NCBI GenBank assembly: GCA_903851135.1
Contig: CAINNK010000023.1
Span: 1 to 53,534, forward strand
Source of the DNA: an uncultured bacterium
GTDB taxonomy: Bacteria; Patescibacteriota; Minisyncoccia; Moranbacterales; GWC2-37-73
Reading direction: 5' to 3'
Length of the DNA: 53,534 nucleotides
Shown one piece after another: positions 25,650 through 33,839 of the stretch. A program made the position numbers and the translations under genes. Each line of letters opens with the position of its first letter. Positions within the stretch are counted from its first letter, which is position 1. A model generated the notes under the pieces. That model saw nothing but the letters and a program-made list of their open reading frames with translations. It had not been told where the DNA came from and did no database searches.

Positions 25650-25722
25650 GCGCTGTTAGCTCAGTTGGTAGAGCAGATCCCTCTTAAGGATATGGTCGGG
25701 GGTTCAAATCCCTCACAGCGCA
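25650..25722 (+). tRNA. tRNA-Lys (anticodon CUU)
   Basis: Acceptor gcgctgt/acagcgc, D loop agctcagttggtagagc, anticodon loop ctCTTaa, T arm ggggg-ttcaaat-ccctc, discriminator A. Confidence 0.9.
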
Positions 25723-25770
25723 CAATTTTCAAAAAGTTTTTGACTTTTTGAAAAATAAAAAAAGTTAAAA

Positions 25771-25867
25771 GGGATTTGAAGGGCGCGAGTAAAATGCGAG
25801 TGTGCGAGCATTTTGTGCGCAGCGCCCAGGCTCCGAGTCGGAGCGAGGAGAAATCCCTCACAGCGCA
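25771..25867 (+). other. Hairpin element capped by the tRNA-Lys 3' end (homologous core to 13526-13598)
   Basis: gggatttgaa (reverse complement of T-loop ttcaaatccc), a 70-nt core (25781-25850), then aaatccctcacagcgca, which equals the tRNA-Lys 3' end. The 54 bp from aaatccc onward exactly repeat 25706-25759. Confidence 0.7.
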
Positions 25868-25913
25868 CAATTTTCAAAAAGTTTTTGACTTTTTGAAAAA
25901 TAAACACAGCTAC

Positions 25914-25985
25914 GCCCCCATAGCTCAACGGATAGAGCAATAGCCTTCTAAGCTGAAGATCTAGGTTCGATTCCTGGTGGGGGTA
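25914..25985 (+). tRNA. tRNA-Arg (anticodon UCU)
   Basis: Acceptor gccccca/tgggggt, anticodon loop ctTCTaa, T arm ctagg-ttcgatt-cctgg, discriminator A. Confidence 0.85.
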
Positions 25986-26004
25986 CAAAATGGAAGTTTG
26001 AACA

Positions 26005-26120
26005 CCCAGCAGGAATCGAACAGAAAAGGGGTCGGGAAAAACTAGGTTTTCCCGCGGCGGAAGTCTTGAAACCGATGGGCTTCAAAGAGCGAAGCGAGTG
26101 AGATTTTCCTGGTGGGGGTA
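26005..26120 (+). other. Hairpin element capped by the tRNA-Arg(UCU) 3' end
   Basis: cccagcaggaatcgaa (26005-26020) is the reverse complement of tRNA T-arm/acceptor ttcgattcctggtggg with 1 mismatch. A structured GC-rich core follows, and the element ends ttcctggtgggggta, the tRNA 3' end. Confidence 0.6.
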
Positions 26121-26125
26121 CGGAG

Positions 26126-26464: not shown

Positions 26465-26506
26465 ACAAAAAAGGAGGTGCACACAATAATAAATGTATGC
26501 ACCTCC
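26465..26506 (-). terminator. Rho-independent terminator of the radical SAM / small-peptide operon
   Basis: On the minus strand: GGAGGTGCA, a 16-nt loop, TGCACCTCC, then TTTTTT. It begins 7 nt after the small ORF stop. Confidence 0.75.
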
Positions 26507-26513
26507 AACGGCA

Positions 26514-26582
26514 TCAACTTCCGACACTTCCAGTGTTCGCACCGCCTCTTGAACCCTTTGAACCAGTGTTAGCTCCTGACAT
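26514..26582 (-). CDS. 22-aa Gly/Ser/Asn/Thr-rich peptide, candidate radical-SAM substrate (RiPP-like precursor)
   Basis: Hand translation gives MSGANTGSKGSRGGANTGSVGS then TGA. SD AGGGGGTGA ends 5 nt before the ATG and starts directly after the radical SAM stop codon. A terminator follows. It is shorter than the ORF-track cut-off. Confidence 0.55.
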   Translation of the reverse strand: MSGANTGSKGSRGGANTGSVGS

Positions 26583-26596
26583 TTTAATCACCCCCT

Positions 26597-27724
26597 TTAT
26601 TGTAAATTTTTTATTTGTTGAAAAATAAAAGCTTCTTCCTTGAAAGCTTCCCGAGAAAAATTTTCTCGCCACCCTATCACACACTTTTTATACAACAAGC
26701 GGAAATTACTTTCTGCAGTTACTTTCCCAATTGTATATTTTCCTAGCGCTTCCCTATTTAATTCCGCTAGGGTATGAGAAATTACATACGGCACGCGATA
26801 AACTGCATCAGCGTCAAGCATGAAAGTTTCTTTTGGTGCCATCGACTTTGGAAAATAACGTACCAAAACTCCATCAAGAACAAAACTTACAGATGAAAAG
26901 CCTATTTGAGCTTTCTCAAATGCTTCAAAAAATTTTACGCCACCAACAGCATTGACCAATTTCAACATGTCACTGACTTCATAAATCTTCAAGACAACAA
27001 CTCTCAAAACATTTACCAACTTGATTTGATTCCAACTAATTTTAAATTCATTTCCACTTAAAGTTAATTTCTTTAACTCAGACCTAGTTGGTGTGACAGT
27101 TGTGATATGCCATTGACTTACTTGCTCTGGAAGTGTTTTACAAGTTTCCAGCACTGAAGCATAATTTATTTTCGTCAGCGTCATCAAGGAATTTACCTCA
27201 CCCCCTGTTGTCAAAATTTCCTGTGCATTTCTTATGCCTTCAATCGCTGTTGCAAAAGAATTTTTGGAATCTCTTTGAAAATTATGAATTCTTTCTGGGC
27301 CATCCACTGAAATGTCCAGCCAATCAAATTTAAAGCCGGCTGATTTAATTTTGCTAATATGCTCAGAATATGAACCATTATCAATCATTCCAATTTTGCT
27401 ATCTGGTCTGATTTGACGAATTTCTTGAAGCCAACTTAAATGTTTCAGCTCAAAAATTCGACCCTCATGCACAACAATTGGATTAGGCAACATTTGGCTA
27501 ACGATAGTTTTTGCTGCGATTTCCAGAGCAACTCCATTGGAAAAATATTGCCGCTCTTTTTGAAAAATGCAATGCTTGCACTGCAAATTGCAATGCCGCG
27601 TTGCCACCACAGACATTACTTTTGGCAATTCCCTTGCTAATTGGGCATACATTTCTCCAATATCATCTTTTTCAGGTTTTCCAAGAAAATATTCGAGCCA
27701 CAAATTCATTGCAAAGTTTTCCAT
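26597..27724 (-). CDS. Radical SAM enzyme (no SPASM-type Cys-rich C-terminus)
   Basis: CNLQCKHC is the CxxxCxxC cluster motif. ISVDGPERIHNFQR resembles the xSxDG...HD..R block of PqqE/AlbA/anSME-like enzymes. I use ATG 27724 (MENFAMNLW) with GGAGGG SD 4 nt upstream. Confidence 0.8.
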   Translation of the reverse strand: MENFAMNLWLEYFLGKPEKDDIGEMYAQLARELPKVMSVVATRHCNLQCKHCIFQKERQYFSNGVALEIAAKTIVSQMLPNPIVVHEGRIFELKHLSWLQEIRQIRPDSKIGMIDNGSYSEHISKIKSAGFKFDWLDISVDGPERIHNFQRDSKNSFATAIEGIRNAQEILTTGGEVNSLMTLTKINYASVLETCKTLPEQVSQWHITTVTPTRSELKKLTLSGNEFKISWNQIKLVNVLRVVVLKIYEVSDMLKLVNAVGGVKFFEAFEKAQIGFSSVSFVLDGVLVRYFPKSMAPKETFMLDADAVYRVPYVISHTLAELNREALGKYTIGKVTAESNFRLLYKKCVIGWRENFSREAFKEEAFIFQQIKNLQ

Positions 27725-27875
27725 AATACCCTCCAATAGATAAATTGTTAAAGCAACTAATAACTGATTATTATGCTTAAACGCAAATATAATCAAATTT
27801 AAAGATGTGTTAATTAATTATATATGGCTTTATCAAGCCTATTTATAGACTAATAGTTTATAGTCATCATAATTG

Positions 27876-27904
27876 TTGACTAAATGAATAAAATATGCTA
27901 GATT
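27876..27904 (+). promoter_or_regulatory. Candidate promoter of the TrmB-like gene (near-leaderless)
   Basis: TTGACT, a 17-nt spacer, then TAGATT. The -10 box ends 6 nt before ATG 27911. Confidence 0.3.
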
Positions 27905-27910
27905 TATTTT

Positions 27911-28674
27911 ATGGAATTGATTGAAGGATTGTTGAATTTAGGCCTAACCGAAAAAGAAGCCAACGTTTATTTGGCTCTTTTGGGCTTGGAAAAAGCAACA
28001 GCCTACACTGTTGGAATTAGAAGCAAACTAAAAAATGCCACCGCCTATGTCGTGCTGAACAATTTAGTGTCAAAAGGATTCGCCCTTAAAATCCCCCAGA
28101 AAGATAAACATTATTTCATTGCCAAATCACCGCGCGAATGCATCGCTATCGCCCAAGAAAAACTATCCACCACTAAAGAAATGCTGCCGGAACTTTTGGC
28201 AATTCAAAAGAAAGCCGATGAAAAAGTCAGCGTCGCTTATTTCGAAGGATTTGAAGGAATCAAAAAAATGTATGACCAACTTATCGCCAACATGCAAAAA
28301 AAACCATCGAGGAAAGATCTTTTATTGCTTTTTATGCTCATCAAAAACACACTTCAGATTTTTTGCAAAAATACTGGCTTCAATTGAATGAAGTCTACGC
28401 AAAAAATAATATCAAAAGAAATGCCATTACCACACTGCACCCTTCAATTAAAAATTATCTACTAGCAGAAACCAAGAAAAAATTCGGGATGAATTTGCGA
28501 CCACTGCCTGAAAAAGAATATTCAAGTAATATTTCAATTGAAGTTTATGATAATTTCACGCAGATAATTTCTCATCGCTACCTGCAAGGAATTCTAATTG
28601 AAAACCCAGATATTGCTGACGTGATGCAACAAATTTTCAAGCTTGTCTGGAAAACTACTGAAAAAGCTAACTAG
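27911..28674 (+). pseudogene. TrmB-family transcriptional regulator interrupted by a -1 frame change at an A8 tract
   Basis: The N-terminal wHTH (LGLTEKEANVYLALLGLEKATAYTV) parallels the intact paralog at 39870-40613. The frame changes at A8 (28296-28303). The downstream frame reads TIEERSFIAFYAHQKHTSDFLQKYWLQLNEVY... through to 28674. Confidence 0.65.
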
Positions 28675-28786: not shown

Positions 28787-29104
28787 TTAATACGGCAGAA
28801 AAAAATCCTTGCCCACGTCAGGCGCTTTAGCATTGTTTTGACTGCGCTGACTAATAATCTCGAGCGCTTTTCGGTAGTTATTCTCATTAAAGACCACACC
28901 TTTATCTTGAGTACCCATAAAGGCCTGCTTTTTCGCATTGCTCCAGGTTGAAGAATACAAATTTTGATTCCAAATATAAGCGCCAAAAACAATCACGCAA
29001 ACCAACGAAACAAAAAACAAGATTTTATAAACCCGCTTCCAGAAATATTCCAAGCCTGAAATAATTTTTTCCTTCTCAAGATTGATTGATGTATCAAGTT
29101 TCAT
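28787..29104 (-). CDS. Single-pass membrane protein, last gene of the pilus operon
   Basis: 105 aa from ATG 29104. One TM helix (ILFFVSLVCVIVFGAYIW). Its start lies within 5 nt of the pilO-like stop. Confidence 0.5.
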   Translation of the reverse strand: MKLDTSINLEKEKIISGLEYFWKRVYKILFFVSLVCVIVFGAYIWNQNLYSSTWSNAKKQAFMGTQDKGVVFNENNYRKALEIISQRSQNNAKAPDVGKDFFLPY

Positions 29105-29108
29105 ATAG

Positions 29109-29822
29109 CTATTGTTTTTTACTATAAAATACAACTTCCAAGGAGGCGCTTAATTTATTACCGATTTTTTTAGCTGGAGCCGGAGTTACTGACGTGCTGA
29201 CATCTTTAGGATTAAAAGGATTCAAAACGCCACTACCGCCACTACTCGTCACTGTGTTAGCATCAGCGTTGTCAATCAAATGACTGATGTTAATTAAGGT
29301 TATATCAGAGTAATATTCCAAGCTTTCAAGACTGCTGATAAACTTAAACAAGCCATTGTAATCTCCAGTTAACATGATAGTTAATTTCAAATAGTCCTTA
29401 CTGGGCAAGGAGTCGAGCAGAGCATTGTCCGAAACAGGCGCAGTGCCAGGCGCTGCAACTGGAGCAATTGGAAGATTTTTTTGTTGAGGTGCATCCTGAA
29501 TGGTAATTGCTATCGTGTTGTTTGTTTCCTGCGCAAGTTTTTCCAAACGCTCAATCAAGGCAACTGCCTGTTGCTTGTCCAACAAGATATTTATTTTATC
29601 TTGTTGATTATTAATTTCCGTGTATTGCTTACCTATTTTTGGCAAGTCAAACAAGCGCTGATTTGTAATATTTTGCTTGATAGCCCCTTGTTCTATTTCA
29701 TCCTTGATTGCAGTTATTTTTCTCAACAATGGCAAAATAACCAACGCCGCGAGGACCCCCACTATCAGAAAAAATAACGCTAGGGCTATAATTTCTCGCT
29801 GAGTTTTTAGAAATTTTTTCAT
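29109..29822 (-). CDS. pilO: PilO-like type IV pilus assembly protein
   Basis: N-terminal TM, a coiled-coil segment, and a position directly after the pilM/pilN-like genes. Confidence 0.55.
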   Translation of the reverse strand: MKKFLKTQREIIALALFFLIVGVLAALVILPLLRKITAIKDEIEQGAIKQNITNQRLFDLPKIGKQYTEINNQQDKINILLDKQQAVALIERLEKLAQETNNTIAITIQDAPQQKNLPIAPVAAPGTAPVSDNALLDSLPSKDYLKLTIMLTGDYNGLFKFISSLESLEYYSDITLINISHLIDNADANTVTSSGGSGVLNPFNPKDVSTSVTPAPAKKIGNKLSASLEVVFYSKKQ

Positions 29823-29864
29823 TCTACAAATAATTATAAAAAATAATTTTTCAAATTCAAATTT

Positions 29865-30419
29865 TTATTGCACTTTTAAGCAATCCTGACTTACAACAAA
29901 ATCCATCTGAAAATCAACATTTTCTTTCACAACAAGATCAGAGAGTGGAACGTTAACATTTTTAAAGCACGCATCCTTTTCAAGATTACTTTTAAATTCA
30001 AGCAATTGATCACGTTTTACTGCTTTTCCGGTCAAATAAATATCGTAATTTTTATTAGTGAAATTATCCACGGTGATTCCGGCGGGGATAACCTGACCCA
30101 AATGATTAAGCACATTCGCCCAGTGCAAATGACCGTTTTGAATCTTTATCAAGAGGCTAGAGGCATCATTAATGGCCTTAAAATCCTTATCATATTTATT
30201 TAGTTCTTGATATTGTGTCTGTTTTTGTTGAGTTGCATAAGTCGTGTTGTTTGAATCTCTTTGAATTTTCAGCAAATAAAAAATATTGATCAAAATAACA
30301 ATTAATACCAAGATTGGAAAAACAAAAAGCACTTCTTTATGCAAAATTTCACGAAAAAGCTTATCTCGCTTGATAGCGTCTTTTTTGTTTTGAGGTAGTA
30401 AATCCAGACTAATCTTCAT
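29865..30419 (-). CDS. pilN: PilN-like type IV pilus assembly protein
   Basis: Short cytoplasmic N-terminus (LLPQNKKDAIKRDKL), a single TM, and an 11-nt overlap with the pilM stop. Confidence 0.6.
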   Translation of the reverse strand: MKISLDLLPQNKKDAIKRDKLFREILHKEVLFVFPILVLIVILINIFYLLKIQRDSNNTTYATQQKQTQYQELNKYDKDFKAINDASSLLIKIQNGHLHWANVLNHLGQVIPAGITVDNFTNKNYDIYLTGKAVKRDQLLEFKSNLEKDACFKNVNVPLSDLVVKENVDFQMDFVVSQDCLKVQ

Positions 30420-31494
30420 ATTGGAGTCCTTTTAATGCTAAGCCTATCGCGGTCGAATATTGCAATGACTGGTTCTTTTCAATGATCGGCAATTTTTTTC
30501 CCAAGTTCACATTTGACCAAGGACTGCCTAATTCAATTTCTCTTCCCAATTTTTTTGATAAATAAGGCACAATCCCCTTGGTATTAGCGCCGCCGCCGCA
30601 AATGATTATCTTATCGATATTTTTTGAATATCCTAACCCGGATAAATAAAAATTGATTGATCTTTCAATTTCCTGAGAAAAATTCTCCAAAATCGGCTGA
30701 ACCAATTTAAACAAGGCATCATCTTTGGAATCACAACCAATGCCATGATTAAACTTTATCTTCTCAGCTTCTTCAAATGAAACACTCATTCCTCTGGAAA
30801 TAACATCTGACAAAGACTGTCCGCAGAGAGGAACGCTGGAAGTAAAACACGGCACGCCTTCTTTTGCAATTGAAAAACTTGTTCGCCTATCTCCAATGTC
30901 CACAATTAAAACTGTTTTATTATAATCACCTGGGGAAAGCAGACTGCGAGTTTGCGCAATTGATTCTATTTCTAAACCAACAACTTCCAGCCCGGCCAAT
31001 TCAACTACCTCTATTGCATCATCAACAGTTGCTCTTGAAACTGCAACAACCAAAAGATTTATTTTGTTTTTTTCAGCAGTCAAAGCTTCGGTAACCATCT
31101 GCCAATCATAATAAACTTGTTCCAACGGAAGCGGAATATTTGCTTCCATCTCCCATTTCACCGCTTCACTTATCTCACTGTCATTCATTTTTGGAATGGT
31201 TATGATCCGCAAAAAAGCCTTCGTCTCAGGCAATGAACAAATAACTTTTTTTGTTTTGATTTTTTTTGGTCCTGAAATTTCAACAAGCTTCTTTATTGCG
31301 CCTGCAACCTGATCTTTCTTTTTTATCTCACCATCACTCACCGCCCCAACAGGCAAAGCCACTGAACCGTAACTGACAATTTTTTCTTCAGAGCCGTCTT
31401 TTTCAAACTTAATAAGCTTGACCGAGAGATCACTCAAGTCAAGACCAAAAATACTGGAAGAATTGCTAAAAATTTTTCTATTTAAAACCCCCAT
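30409..31494 (-). CDS. pilM: PilM type IV pilus assembly ATPase-like (actin fold) protein
   Basis: FGLDLSDLSVKLIKF, VDIGDRRTSFSI and IICGGGANTKG are actin/FtsA-like phosphate-binding motifs typical of PilM. Confidence 0.8.
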   Translation of the reverse strand: MGVLNRKIFSNSSSIFGLDLSDLSVKLIKFEKDGSEEKIVSYGSVALPVGAVSDGEIKKKDQVAGAIKKLVEISGPKKIKTKKVICSLPETKAFLRIITIPKMNDSEISEAVKWEMEANIPLPLEQVYYDWQMVTEALTAEKNKINLLVVAVSRATVDDAIEVVELAGLEVVGLEIESIAQTRSLLSPGDYNKTVLIVDIGDRRTSFSIAKEGVPCFTSSVPLCGQSLSDVISRGMSVSFEEAEKIKFNHGIGCDSKDDALFKLVQPILENFSQEIERSINFYLSGLGYSKNIDKIIICGGGANTKGIVPYLSKKLGREIELGSPWSNVNLGKKLPIIEKNQSLQYSTAIGLALKGLQYED

Positions 31495-31582
31495 TTTTTA
31501 TTTTTCGCTTATGTTTATTTTTATGTCTGCTTTAATTTTACACTATTTTTTCAATAATTCATAATCAATTTTTCACAATCAA

Positions 31583-33217
31583 TCACAACTCTTCCCAAAG
31601 ATCAATGGAATATTGCGTACCGGTTGGAAAATATGGTGGCGGAAAATACAACAAATTATTGTCAAAATTAAGATTGCGAAAACAGTACCCGTCTCCGACG
31701 AAAACCCCACCTCCACAATTGTAATCATTCCCAACGTAAGCAAAACCATAACGAACATTTGTAGCAATAGAGCCATTCACGGTAATGGTACTTTTATTAC
31801 TGGTGTAGGCGACTCTTCCAACACGTCCTTCTTTAGCAAGCAAAGCTCCGTCAATTGTTAAGTTAGTCAAACTATTTCTAATAATTTCCACATCTTTTTG
31901 GGCTATAACACCTATGATGTCATTACCGTTAAAATTCGTGTAAAGCAAATTATCCATGCCCAAAAATACGCTCTTACCTCCGCCGGTATAGCCGGGTTCA
32001 TCTGACAATTCGGCGGCCACCAAAGAAACCCGCTTATTGCTGATCGTTCCCTCTAGCCACAAATTATTTGCCACAAACACAACCCCGTTATTCGGGATAG
32101 TATAATTAGTCATACTTAAACATTTTCCCTTGGCGTGAGTGCCATTTGCAATCCAATTGCAAGGAATTGTTGTGTTGTTGCAACAGACGGTTGTAGCGTT
32201 GGCACCAGAGCAAGACGTTCCATTGGTTCCGGCGTAAGCTCCTGTAGCCCCAGCAACAAGCCCGCTATATTTTGAAATAGCATTAGTTGAATTATCAAAG
32301 GAATCAATTTTGCAAACATCCATTGTGCCATCGGTTTTTAAAATAATCCTGCGTCCGGCGCCACTGTTGTCAAATTTTACCGTTGCTTGACTACGCATAA
32401 AAGAAATATCAGAAACTACACTGGCAAAATCAATTTGCGGTGTAGGAAATTGCCTACCACCTTTAAAGACGTCTATGCGCTGGGAAACAGCATTCGGCAG
32501 CGCCTCCAGAGGTCTTTGATTATCATTAACTCCGGTTGCCGGAGGAACATTCACGTGCGTATGCACCCCAAATTCACTGCCACCAGAATGATCTGGGTCA
32601 TCGAAAGTACTCAAAGAACTTGAAACTACGTTTGTCGCAACCCCATCAAAACGAATACCGGAGTTAGAATGGATCTTGCCATTCACAGTTGTTCCTTCAC
32701 CAAAACGCATAAAATCATTAGCCAGCACACTATTTTCACTCCAAGAAGGTCTTCGAAAACGAACCTTGATGCTTCTTTTTGTGCCTGGATATTTATATGT
32801 CCAGCCAGTAACAACCACATTGACAATTGTTGAACTAGGATCCGGTGGAGAAACAACAATACTATATCTTCCAAGTGCTCCACCTTGCTCATCAACATAT
32901 TCTCTTTCATATGGAGAATTACTTCGTAAGCCAAGCGGATCTGGACTCGTACCCTGCCAAAAAGCTCGCACTTGCATGGCAGTTTTTCCATCTGTTTGAT
33001 GTGCCAAATACCAACGATAAAAATTAACTCCGGCCTCTGCAATTTGAAAAGCTTCCTCCCTACTCTGAGTTTGATAAGCTACTTTAGCTTGATTGGCGAC
33101 AAATTGCACCACGGAAGCAAGAATAATAGAAACCATCGCAATAATAACCAGCGCATAAGCAATGGCTGAGCCTTTTTTCTTCTCATTTGCAATAGTTATT
33201 TTTTTCAAACAATTCAT
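31583..33217 (-). CDS. Large PilX-like pilus-associated protein
   Basis: 544 aa from ATG 33217 (the junction with the upstream gene is TAA-T-ATG). It has an N-terminal hydrophobic helix (GSAIAYALVIIAMVSIILASVVQFV) and a Gly/Asn/Thr-rich beta-type body. Confidence 0.6.
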   Translation of the reverse strand: MNCLKKITIANEKKKGSAIAYALVIIAMVSIILASVVQFVANQAKVAYQTQSREEAFQIAEAGVNFYRWYLAHQTDGKTAMQVRAFWQGTSPDPLGLRSNSPYEREYVDEQGGALGRYSIVVSPPDPSSTIVNVVVTGWTYKYPGTKRSIKVRFRRPSWSENSVLANDFMRFGEGTTVNGKIHSNSGIRFDGVATNVVSSSLSTFDDPDHSGGSEFGVHTHVNVPPATGVNDNQRPLEALPNAVSQRIDVFKGGRQFPTPQIDFASVVSDISFMRSQATVKFDNSGAGRRIILKTDGTMDVCKIDSFDNSTNAISKYSGLVAGATGAYAGTNGTSCSGANATTVCCNNTTIPCNWIANGTHAKGKCLSMTNYTIPNNGVVFVANNLWLEGTISNKRVSLVAAELSDEPGYTGGGKSVFLGMDNLLYTNFNGNDIIGVIAQKDVEIIRNSLTNLTIDGALLAKEGRVGRVAYTSNKSTITVNGSIATNVRYGFAYVGNDYNCGGGVFVGDGYCFRNLNFDNNLLYFPPPYFPTGTQYSIDLWEEL

Positions 33218-33218
33218 A

Positions 33219-33839
33219 TTAATTATTATCATTAAGGTTTCTAAATTCAACAAAAGATTCCAGATTGACGTTGTCTGGCGCAGTAAGTGGTTTAATATTT
33301 ACCCATAAACGCACTTTAACTAGTTTGACATTGGCAGGTACCGGATTGACAATGGGATTATTAACAGTGTCAATTGGATAATCACTATTATAATATTCAA
33401 AAACCGGCTGCGCTGCAGTGTTGACAACATAATTAGTAACCACACTAACCGTTTGGTCACCGGCTGGATAAGAAGCTGGCGTACCGCTTGGTTTAGTGAC
33501 ACCTTTCTTGAAAGTTTGTGTAACACTATCTAAATAGTAATGCACTCGCTCAGTGACATTGTCACCATCATCATCAAGATAAACTGTCAGACTGGTATTA
33601 CTCACGCTTTTAATAGGATAACTACCATCATCCGCTTGCCTGATTTTTCTCAAATTCTTAATAGTTTCATTAAGCGCCCTAGTGGCTTTGCCTGTGGCAT
33701 TGCCTGCCTCCATAACAAAAGAATTCATTTTCCAACTTTTCGAAGCCAGCATCGTAAAGCCCCCAATTCCAAGTGTAAGAATTGCTATTGCAATGAGCAG
33801 CTCCACCAGGGTCATTCCTTTTTTATTTAAGTTCCTCAT
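33219..33839 (-). CDS. Prepilin-type N-terminal cleavage/methylation domain protein (minor pilin)
   Basis: KKGMTLVELLIAIAILTLGIGGF is the class III signal (G|xTLxE). Confidence 0.75.
   Translation of the reverse strand: MRNLNKKGMTLVELLIAIAILTLGIGGFTMLASKSWKMNSFVMEAGNATGKATRALNETIKNLRKIRQADDGSYPIKSVSNTSLTVYLDDDGDNVTERVHYYLDSVTQTFKKGVTKPSGTPASYPAGDQTVSVVTNYVVNTAAQPVFEYYNSDYPIDTVNNPIVNPVPANVKLVKVRLWVNIKPLTAPDNVNLESFVEFRNLNDNN

Follow-up and report, generated by a model that had tools for sequence, protein, structure and literature searches.

Can a reading frame of only 22 codons, sitting directly behind the gene of a radical S-adenosylmethionine (SAM) enzyme, be a genuine gene, and would its product then be the substrate of that enzyme? 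The question is raised by a DNA stretch of 53,534 nt (contig CAINNK010000023.1 of assembly GCA_903851135.1, positions 1 to 53,534; hereafter the window, meaning the whole stretch that was analysed) from an uncultured member of the Patescibacteria, i.e., the Candidate Phyla Radiation (CPR). A first-pass annotation of the window had noticed the enzyme on the minus strand and, immediately following it, an uncalled mini-open reading frame (mini-ORF) encoding a Gly/Ser/Asn/Thr-rich repeat peptide, and had proposed the two as a candidate system for a peptide that is ribosomally synthesized and then altered by post-translational modification (RiPP). From the comparative sequence evidence presented here, enzyme and peptide represent a real, undescribed radical SAM-peptide (RiPP-like) family in which the enzyme would act on the peptide. 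We consider it likely that, together with a regulator gene, they make up a compact three-part cassette (radical SAM enzyme, peptide and regulator) for a ribosomally made, enzyme-modified peptide.

The mini-ORF is predicted to be a gene

The radical SAM reading frame on the minus strand, its cluster motif CNLQCKHC and its TAA stop codon (26599-26597) were all read again in the sequence. Between this stop and the ATG of the mini-ORF lies AGGGGGTGATTAAA, a spacing of 14 nt, and a terminator hairpin that is followed by T6 starts 7 nt past the mini-ORF stop, just as the first-pass annotation had described. The stem of this hairpin had been given as 9 bp; it is in fact 13 bp long with seven G-C pairs and stronger than described (free energy of -26 kcal/mol, z = -6.6 versus shuffled sequences, with 0 out of 200 shuffles folding equally well). 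The earlier estimate of about 50 percent G+C for the mini-ORF within an AT-rich region was accurate (50.7%, while the enzyme gene has 36.2% and the window 39.2%).

A 22-codon ORF is by itself uninformative, and what lifts this one above chance is its conservation. In comparison with L001, a relative at 88% identity, the mini-ORF shows 11 codon differences, of which 11 are synonymous and 0 nonsynonymous, plus one in-frame codon indel. In three further loci (L002, L003 and L004, enzyme identity 47-50%) an ORF preceded by a Shine-Dalgarno (SD) sequence begins 20-25 nt past the enzyme stop and encodes the same motif via other codons (MNINTGSAGVRMTGANTGSAGVPRRPRPVKKAK, MAGANTGSAGKPAKTRPVGTVQPKK and MTGANTGSVGCPQSPKEVMGMSGANTGTAGGQQKPKPANPPKGK). 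Across L001-L004 the motif codons vary at third positions, and GGAGG/GGAGA sites are found ahead of the mini-ORFs, one SD per copy.

Could the mini-ORF nevertheless be something other than a gene, i.e., an RNA element (a 3' untranslated region structure or a small RNA) or a chance ORF? Its length of only 22 codons would fit such a reading, as would the fact that most annotations leave it uncalled, e.g., on the contig of P0003 (a relative at 82% identity), where no gene is called downstream of the enzyme. Yet an Rfam scan recovered tRNAs only and no RNA family at the mini-ORF, and a peptide-profile search recovered 25 peptide clusters that had been called independently in public data, every one of them unnamed or "hypothetical" (five family peptides compared to NCBIfam also gave zero matches near cutoff). 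Given that the changes are synonymous only, that distant loci keep the amino-acid motif with different codons, each with its own SD, and that no RNA family is present, selection acts on the mini-ORF at the protein level. The RNA-element reading is effectively refuted by this protein-like substitution pattern and we regard any non-gene explanation as extremely improbable. The mini-ORF is, by all these signs, under selection and predicted to be translated, which agrees with the first-pass annotation, where the SD, the tight coupling and the terminator had been taken as arguments that it is real; to these are now added the synonymous-only changes and the presence of the motif at every testable homologue.

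Enzyme and peptide are found together throughout Patescibacteria

If the original proposal holds, a conserved small ORF should be expected beside homologues of the enzyme. The family is a small one. A word-indexed protein search retrieved 40 relatives, all of them from Patescibacteria-type metagenome bins, while an exhaustive profile search yielded 82 clusters (50% identity) at E < 1e-30, and a total of 90 loci were fetched from genome and metagenome collections. Testable CPR loci, i.e., loci of the Patescibacteria clade with usable flanks after duplicate removal, numbered 46, and in 46/46 of these one to three small ORFs carrying the motif adjoin the enzyme gene; every peptide-less locus is truncated on the relevant side. 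The distance between peptide and enzyme is at most ca. 1.3 kb and mostly below 700 nt, and the peptide is encoded on the same strand as the enzyme in all testable CPR loci except L068, where the two are divergent. The peptide gene lies directly downstream in relatives above ca. 42% enzyme identity and mostly upstream in the 31-37% group.

For the reverse search, a degenerate DNA pattern for MAGANTGSAG was compared to species-representative genomes totalling 596 Gb. Of the seven sites retrieved, six are genuine peptide genes, all from Patescibacteria, and one (GANTGW) is due to chance. All five testable peptides found in this way (5/5) sit less than 300 nt from an enzyme of the family and the sixth is located at a contig end. 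Searches in both directions point to a peptide gene that travels with the enzyme in dozens of Patescibacteria/CPR bacteria. When the ORFs lying within +/-4 kb were compared all-versus-all for 42 CPR loci, no conserved protease, transporter (exporters included) or second enzyme was recovered. The third-largest cluster of neighbouring ORFs in this comparison turned out to be an antisense artefact within the radical SAM gene and was discarded.

A sister clade outside the CPR, linked to an importer

Loci with enzymes of 25-30% identity were initially meant as negative-control outgroups, a use that was dropped as the motif was found there too; they constitute a true sister clade. Since these loci carry the motif, the outgroup control is therefore itself evidence for the linkage. 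The sister-clade enzymes are radical SAM proteins of 390-404 aa from Brocadia, Desulforudis, Cohaesibacter, KSB1 and an Olavius symbiont (loci L032-L034, L073-L087 and L091-L095, e.g., L082 4020-11543). An hhalign comparison between them and the CPR family gave a probability of 99.9% (E = 7e-36, 359 columns) over the full length, including the C-terminal domain, and no curated NCBIfam model came near cutoff for the sister-clade enzyme. A motif peptide adjoins the enzyme in 15/15 testable sister-clade loci, encoded by a small ORF directly downstream, e.g., MIMNLGANSGSAGKGKPKK, MPTANSGSVGRGKPFD..., MGWANLGSLGRGK... and ...FATNIGSNGKGKPF, and of the type ANSGSxG(K/R)GK. The small ORF expected beside homologues is thus present in both clades, and the reverse search agrees.

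In the sister clade the pair sits in a complete Opp/Dpp/Nik-type ATP-binding cassette (ABC) importer operon that contains an OppD-like ATPase, an unknown protein (238-250 aa), the radical SAM enzyme, the peptide, a family-5 binding protein and two permeases. The transporter is an importer, not an exporter, which suggests release and re-uptake of the product.

Some sister-clade peptides deviate from the common pattern. In L076 (~2010-2090) and L083 (~1765-1850) a His replaces the otherwise invariant Asn (AAHSGSRGKGKP and AGHSGSKGKGK), and the GSxGKGK in these His-bearing peptides matches the spacing of the P-loop GxxxxGK, without the subsequent Ser/Thr. In L074 (2525-4192) and L034 (7280-9064) the motif is found in frame at the N-terminus of the binding protein, before the lipoprotein signal (MAYANLGSANRGKKLRRK...VVIFSCG...), where it would be the cytoplasmic N-terminus of the signal peptide.

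A short motif is the conserved part of the peptides

The window peptide had been described as containing a duplicated GANTGS(K/V)GS unit. Two copies of GANTGS are indeed present, and these are the only two motif matches that a scan of the whole 53.5-kb window returns, both inside the mini-ORF; the unit conserved in the family is instead N-x-G-S within [AG]ANxGSxG, the full family motif being [AG]-A-N-[TSA]-G-S-x-G. Three residues (N5, G7 and S8) never differ between the aligned peptides, while the remainder of the peptide varies. The core motif contains neither Cys nor aromatic residues, and no leader of the nitrile-hydratase-like or Nif11-like kind is present in the family peptides. These are 19-66 aa long, with the motif beginning at residues 2-4, and in most of them the motif is followed by a tail rich in Pro, Lys and Arg and built around P[KR]P[VI]K (e.g., MSGANTGSAGTQQNPRPAKPIKRKKTKK). 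Many consist of two or three tandem motif plus tail modules. RiPP substrates typically come as such tandem multi-module precursors, and this architecture supports the reading of an enzyme-modified peptide. Two bare motifs with no tail are seen only in the window peptide and the L001 peptide (in contrast to L008, L009, L014 and P0190-P0214), and these two appear to have lost the tail and kept both motifs. The tails of most relatives, as well as the tie between a non-CPR sister clade and an ABC importer, go beyond what the first-pass annotation had noted.

The enzyme is a radical SAM protein with an unassigned C-terminal domain

The enzyme belongs to the radical SAM superfamily by its CxxxCxxC motif, a PF04055 match above the gathering score and a partial TIM-barrel fold. 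PF04055 is its sole Pfam match (37.8 bits versus a cutoff of 29.5, residues 40-196); none of the Pfam models for SPASM, twitch or PqqD/RRE (RiPP recognition element) matched even at E <= 1, and the domain check suggested together with the first-pass annotation (PF04055, SPASM, RRE) found PF04055 alone. Besides CNLQCKHC, the enzyme has the ISVDGPERIHNFQR block. Only two Cys lie outside the cluster motif in the window enzyme, as had been counted, and among 36 homologues C45, C49 and C52 are the sole invariant Cys, which confirms the absence of SPASM and twitch domains and leaves no auxiliary cluster; the C-terminal Cys-rich auxiliary-cluster domain by which SPASM/twitch maturases are defined was not found. 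The (near-)invariant residues of the same homologues include W9, H51, H86-E-G88-R89 (occupying the usual GGE position), H95, D137/S139/D141/G142, Q150/R151, N187, W231, Y248, P292/S294, E299, Y313 and W352.

With regard to curated families, the best NCBIfam scores stay below 40 bits versus cutoffs of 225-725, and these sub-cutoff matches span only the N-terminal core of NirJ-, SPASM- and MoaA-type enzymes. Of the proteins with a solved structure, YydG, which is a peptide epimerase, comes closest in sequence (E = only 7e-5, residues 38-133); SkfB and anSME are next. The enzyme falls outside the characterised non-peptide radical SAM families, in keeping with the original proposal, and seems to be of the peptide-modifier type, given that YydG, SkfB and anSME are its nearest structural-sequence relatives and SPASM maturase cores the nearest NCBIfam models.

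The AlphaFold2 (AF2) model of the enzyme (predicted local distance difference test, pLDDT, 91.8; predicted template modelling score, pTM, 0.90) adopts the radical SAM barrel fold with a Foldseek probability of 1.00, and its PDB neighbours (template modelling score, TM, ~0.5) are viperin, SkfB, anSME, DesII, CteB, MoaA, BlsE and SuiB. The C-terminal region, for which the first-pass annotation had no assignment, has no Pfam or NCBIfam domain either. Its 154 residues modelled apart reached an AF2 pLDDT of 89, and a Foldseek search against the PDB gave E = 0.56 and TM <= 0.25 at best. Because there is no significant fold match, this domain is not SPASM, twitch or a recognisable RRE; a very divergent RRE is a remote possibility. 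A role as a defence gene was considered and rejected, as PADLOC gives just a 20.5-bit pVip-like core match; the best NCBIfam matches of the window protein do not include the viperin model, and the structural TM to viperin is ~0.5.

The tails and the fold invite another explanation, i.e., that the product of the mini-ORF is a small basic protein in its own right (e.g., a binder of nucleic acids or ribosomes) which only shares regulation or an operon with a radical SAM enzyme acting on another substrate, e.g., a nucleotide, a sugar or another protein. Lys/Arg/Pro-rich tails on most family peptides are in its favour, and so are the weak pVip-like score and the presence among the structural neighbours of viperin, DesII, MoaA and BlsE, which are not peptide-directed (single-cluster or nucleotide-/sugar-directed enzymes). 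Conservation, however, resides in the uncharged N-x-G-S and not in the basic tail, which the window peptide lacks altogether. Co-occurrence is strict in both directions and in two clades with otherwise different neighbourhoods, and adjacency holds even as the peptide switches between upstream and downstream positions, while the viperin, MoaA and DesII matches reflect the generic barrel (TM ~0.5, scores far under cutoffs). We consider this explanation quite improbable.

A TrmB-like regulator and its candidate operator

A divergent TrmB-type regulator gene had been reported next to the enzyme and is indeed there, with the qualification that it is frameshifted in the window, i.e., split into ORFs of 158 aa and 103 aa, as one nucleotide is deleted (~28303-28306) right behind an A8 run (28295-28302). 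The gene is intact in L007 (254 aa; the alignment reference for the frameshift) and on the P0003 contig (251 aa), and the window copy may be deregulated, decaying, recently inactivated or affected by an assembly error. In the comparison of neighbouring ORFs described above, a TrmB-like protein (243-275 aa) was the one conserved partner, present in 33/42 CPR loci (L108 is an additional case), nearly always divergent and 120-950 nt upstream of the enzyme. With PF01978 the window copy reaches 53.2 bits and four homologues reach 29-55 bits, whereas the C-terminal 170 aa, where TrmB proper has a sugar-binding effector domain, have no Pfam match and the NCBIfam TrmB equivalogs remain below 25 bits versus cutoffs of 530-650.

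A palindrome in the divergent promoter region is common to the window and L007 (5843-5864) although the flanking intergenic sequence diverges. In the form TAGTCA-N7-10-TGACTA it occurs in the intergenic region between regulator and radical SAM gene of six distinct loci, with enzymes 30-88% identical to that of the window (further positions are L027 5411-5429, L043 2655-2673, L046 833-851 and L108 3155-3171, and L044 likewise has it). As only ~0.4 exact matches would be expected (an estimate for all fetched loci), the palindrome is a credible candidate operator of the TrmB-like regulator.

The locus and its surroundings

The features of the locus are collected in Table 1.

Table 1 Positions of the cassette and associated elements in the window
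Feature	Position	Strand	Remarks
Radical SAM enzyme gene	26597..27724	minus	375-aa product; ATG 27724-27722, TAA 26599-26597; ORF and translation
SD of the radical SAM gene, GGAGGG	27729..27734	minus	read from the sequence; kept in L007
CNLQCKHC (CxxxCxxC), [4Fe-4S]/SAM cluster motif, residues 45-52	27569..27592	minus	
Enzyme C-terminal region, residues ~222-375	26600..27061	minus	conserved in both clades; without assignable fold
SD of the mini-ORF, AGGGGGTGA	26588..26596	minus	begins 1 nt past the radical SAM stop
Precursor-like mini-gene, MSGANTGSKGSRGGANTGSVGS, 22 aa plus stop	26514..26582	minus	ATG 26582-26580, TGA 26516-26514
Core motif copy 1, GANTGS, residues 3-8	26559..26576	minus	motif scan
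Core motif copy 2, GANTGS, residues 14-19	26526..26543	minus	motif scan
Intrinsic terminator, 13-bp stem, 8-nt loop, T6	26467..26506	minus	closes the radical SAM-peptide transcription unit
Palindrome TAGTCA-N10-TGACTA, candidate operator of the TrmB-like regulator	27861..27882	unstranded	divergent promoter region
TrmB-like winged-helix regulator gene, frameshifted	27911..28674	plus	PF01978, 53 bits

The neighbours of the cassette are housekeeping genes, i.e., those for valyl-tRNA synthetase (ValRS), Hsp20, VanW, four tRNAs and a type IV pilus operon, and a search of IMG/VR contigs for a phage origin of the cassette gave zero relatives. The type IV pilus assembly operon (PilM, PilN, PilO-like, PilX-like; 28787-33253, minus strand) adjoins the cassette and is also next to it in L007, L018, L049 and on the P0003 contig; this arrangement is not family-wide. 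The tRNA cluster of the window (Lys, Arg, His, Arg) holds two pairs of direct repeats, one of 62 nt (25706-25767 / 25851-25912, 95% identical) that covers the tRNA-Lys 3' end plus flank, and one of 16 nt (25971-25986 / 26106-26121) in which the 3' end of tRNA-Arg(TCT) is repeated exactly. Between the two members of either pair lies a G+C-rich insert of 80-120 nt without an Rfam match, and the repeats may be remnants of duplication or integration.

Comparison with known peptide-modifying systems

How does the cassette relate to the systems already described? In the literature covered, searches on motif strings returned irrelevant matches only (e.g., "PlantGSAD"), and those on CPR phyla, radical SAM, RiPP, precursor peptide and TrmB found no relevant paper.

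A precedent is set by the proteusin epimerases (PoyD, OspD, AvpD, PlpD), which have the radical SAM cluster only and act independently of the leader (PMC8326336). Like the window enzyme, they contain a single [4Fe-4S] cluster, no SPASM or twitch domain and an extra C-terminal domain, and they act without leader on short Gly/Asn/Thr/Ala-rich stretches (PMC8326336). Known radical SAM epimerases, however, need a strictly conserved catalytic Cys as hydrogen donor (PMC8326336) and this Cys is absent from the window family. A sequence relationship to the proteusin epimerases is not detectable, the C-terminal domain of the window enzyme is not a recognisable RRE, and the peptides are without a nitrile-hydratase-like leader.

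YydG/EpeE, the best solved-structure match, is likewise a peptide-modifying radical SAM enzyme, one that abstracts a Calpha hydrogen, but it carries an additional [4Fe-4S] cluster, uses a Cys as hydrogen donor and targets hydrophobic Val/Ile sites in a leader-containing precursor, and the similarity is limited to the cluster-binding N-terminal part. With the SPASM maturases (PqqE, AlbA, SkfB, anSME, CteB, SuiB, GrrM) the window enzyme shares a radical SAM core of the same lineage and an adjacent short precursor gene, and in the case of GrrA/GrrM also Gly-rich repeat peptides. Unlike these, it has neither a C-terminal Cys-rich auxiliary-cluster domain nor a recognisable RRE, and the known thioether and cyclophane chemistries would find neither Cys nor an aromatic side chain in the family motif.

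In gene organization, the cassette resembles the streptococcal radical SAM RiPP (RaS-RiPP) operons (Rgg/SHP; streptide, tryglysin), in which a small precursor and a radical SAM enzyme form an operon with a dedicated adjacent transcription factor and each precursor family is recognised by a short motif that its members conserve. The differences are a TrmB-like regulator here instead of Rgg, CPR loci without an exporter gene, SPASM enzymes in the streptococcal operons, and Patescibacteria as hosts. Taken as a whole, the cassette works like a RaS-RiPP system and lacks the defining traits of SPASM/twitch, RRE-dependent, PoyD- and YydG-type enzymes. What it has in common with RiPP systems at large is a ribosomally encoded precursor gene clustered with the enzyme; functions for leader/follower removal and export were not found in the cluster.

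How the cassette might work

That the enzyme modifies the peptide, and in which way, is what we infer from these data. In the mechanism we propose, the enzyme would bind the short N-x-G-S motif directly, with no leader peptide, possibly by means of the helices at its N-terminus and of its unique C-terminal domain. SAM would be cleaved to a 5'-deoxyadenosyl radical, which would take a hydrogen from the invariant Asn, Gly or Ser. A redox-neutral outcome, e.g., PoyD-like Calpha epimerisation to a D-residue, would be the most economical one because the enzyme lacks an auxiliary Fe-S cluster that could take up an electron, and an invariant Tyr (Y248 or Y313) would have to stand in for the usual Cys hydrogen donor. 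The main alternative would be a small intramolecular cross-link from the side chain of Asn (or His) to a Gly/Ser carbon; such an N-to-C cross-link is a live option because the sister-clade replacement of Asn by His keeps a side-chain nitrogen in place. The product would probably stay a peptide, since neither a protease nor an exporter is conserved in the CPR loci, and it may act intracellularly, possibly as a signal for the TrmB-like regulator.

Several points weigh against an enzyme-modified peptide and its cassette. The tie between enzyme and peptide is one of adjacency, which is not modification, and the absence of a conserved leader, protease or exporter from the CPR loci is atypical for RiPPs. 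The family lacks the conserved Cys hydrogen donor that known radical SAM epimerases need (PMC8326336). An RRE-like domain is not recognisable in the enzyme by Pfam, NCBIfam or the fold search of its C-terminal domain, and no conserved partner ORF supplies one. The window peptide itself is devoid of the P[KR]P[VI]K tail borne by most relatives. Finally, the regulator gene is frameshifted in the window, and it is missing from at least five CPR loci with enough flank as well as from the sister clade.

The importer and the regulator also bear on a different fate of the peptide, i.e., that it is sacrificed to yield a small molecule (e.g., a cofactor, signal or metallophore), with the radical SAM enzyme carrying out the first, cross-linking step on the invariant N-x-G-S residues and housekeeping peptidases then releasing the product. 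PqqA gives pyrroloquinoline quinone (PQQ) and MftA gives mycofactocin in this manner. As in PqqA/MftA, the motif is extremely conserved and the rest variable, whereas the cores of antibiotics are hypervariable; the ABC importer and family-5 binding protein of the sister clade would fit the uptake of a released compound, and the regulator attached in CPR loci is of the ligand type. The PQQ and mycofactocin pathways, on the other hand, need several further dedicated enzymes, while here only the radical SAM enzyme is conserved. No auxiliary cluster is available for an oxidative cross-link, and tandem modules with their own basic tails resemble peptide products rather than a scaffold. We deem a sacrificial precursor unlikely and retain the enzyme-modified peptide as the preferred reading.

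In its furthest extension, the preferred reading would make the cassette a new RiPP class, in which a radical SAM enzyme devoid of SPASM and RRE, with a C-terminal domain not seen before, recognises the bare N-x-G-S and performs new chemistry on Asn/Gly/Ser (an N-to-C cross-link or Cys-independent epimerisation), the product being a ligand that is sensed by the TrmB-like regulator in the CPR and imported by the Opp/Nik-type transporter in Brocadia, Desulforudis and others. We offer this fuller picture tentatively, as one that could well turn out otherwise.

Significance for Patescibacteria

Patescibacteria (CPR) have tiny genomes and, to our knowledge, almost no recognised specialised metabolism. 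That the cassette has been kept across ca. 80 enzyme clusters of the CPR suggests a function that is indispensable to these bacteria. The enzyme departs from the usual rules of radical SAM peptide maturases, as it has no auxiliary cluster, no recognisable RRE, no leader on its substrate and no Cys or aromatic residue in the motif, and the reaction, once solved, would probably be a new radical SAM transformation or a new route to epimerisation. With two genes and a 22-mer substrate, the system is directly testable by co-expression, and the importer of the sister clade provides a handle on the biological function, i.e., that of a signal or a metallophore-like ligand.

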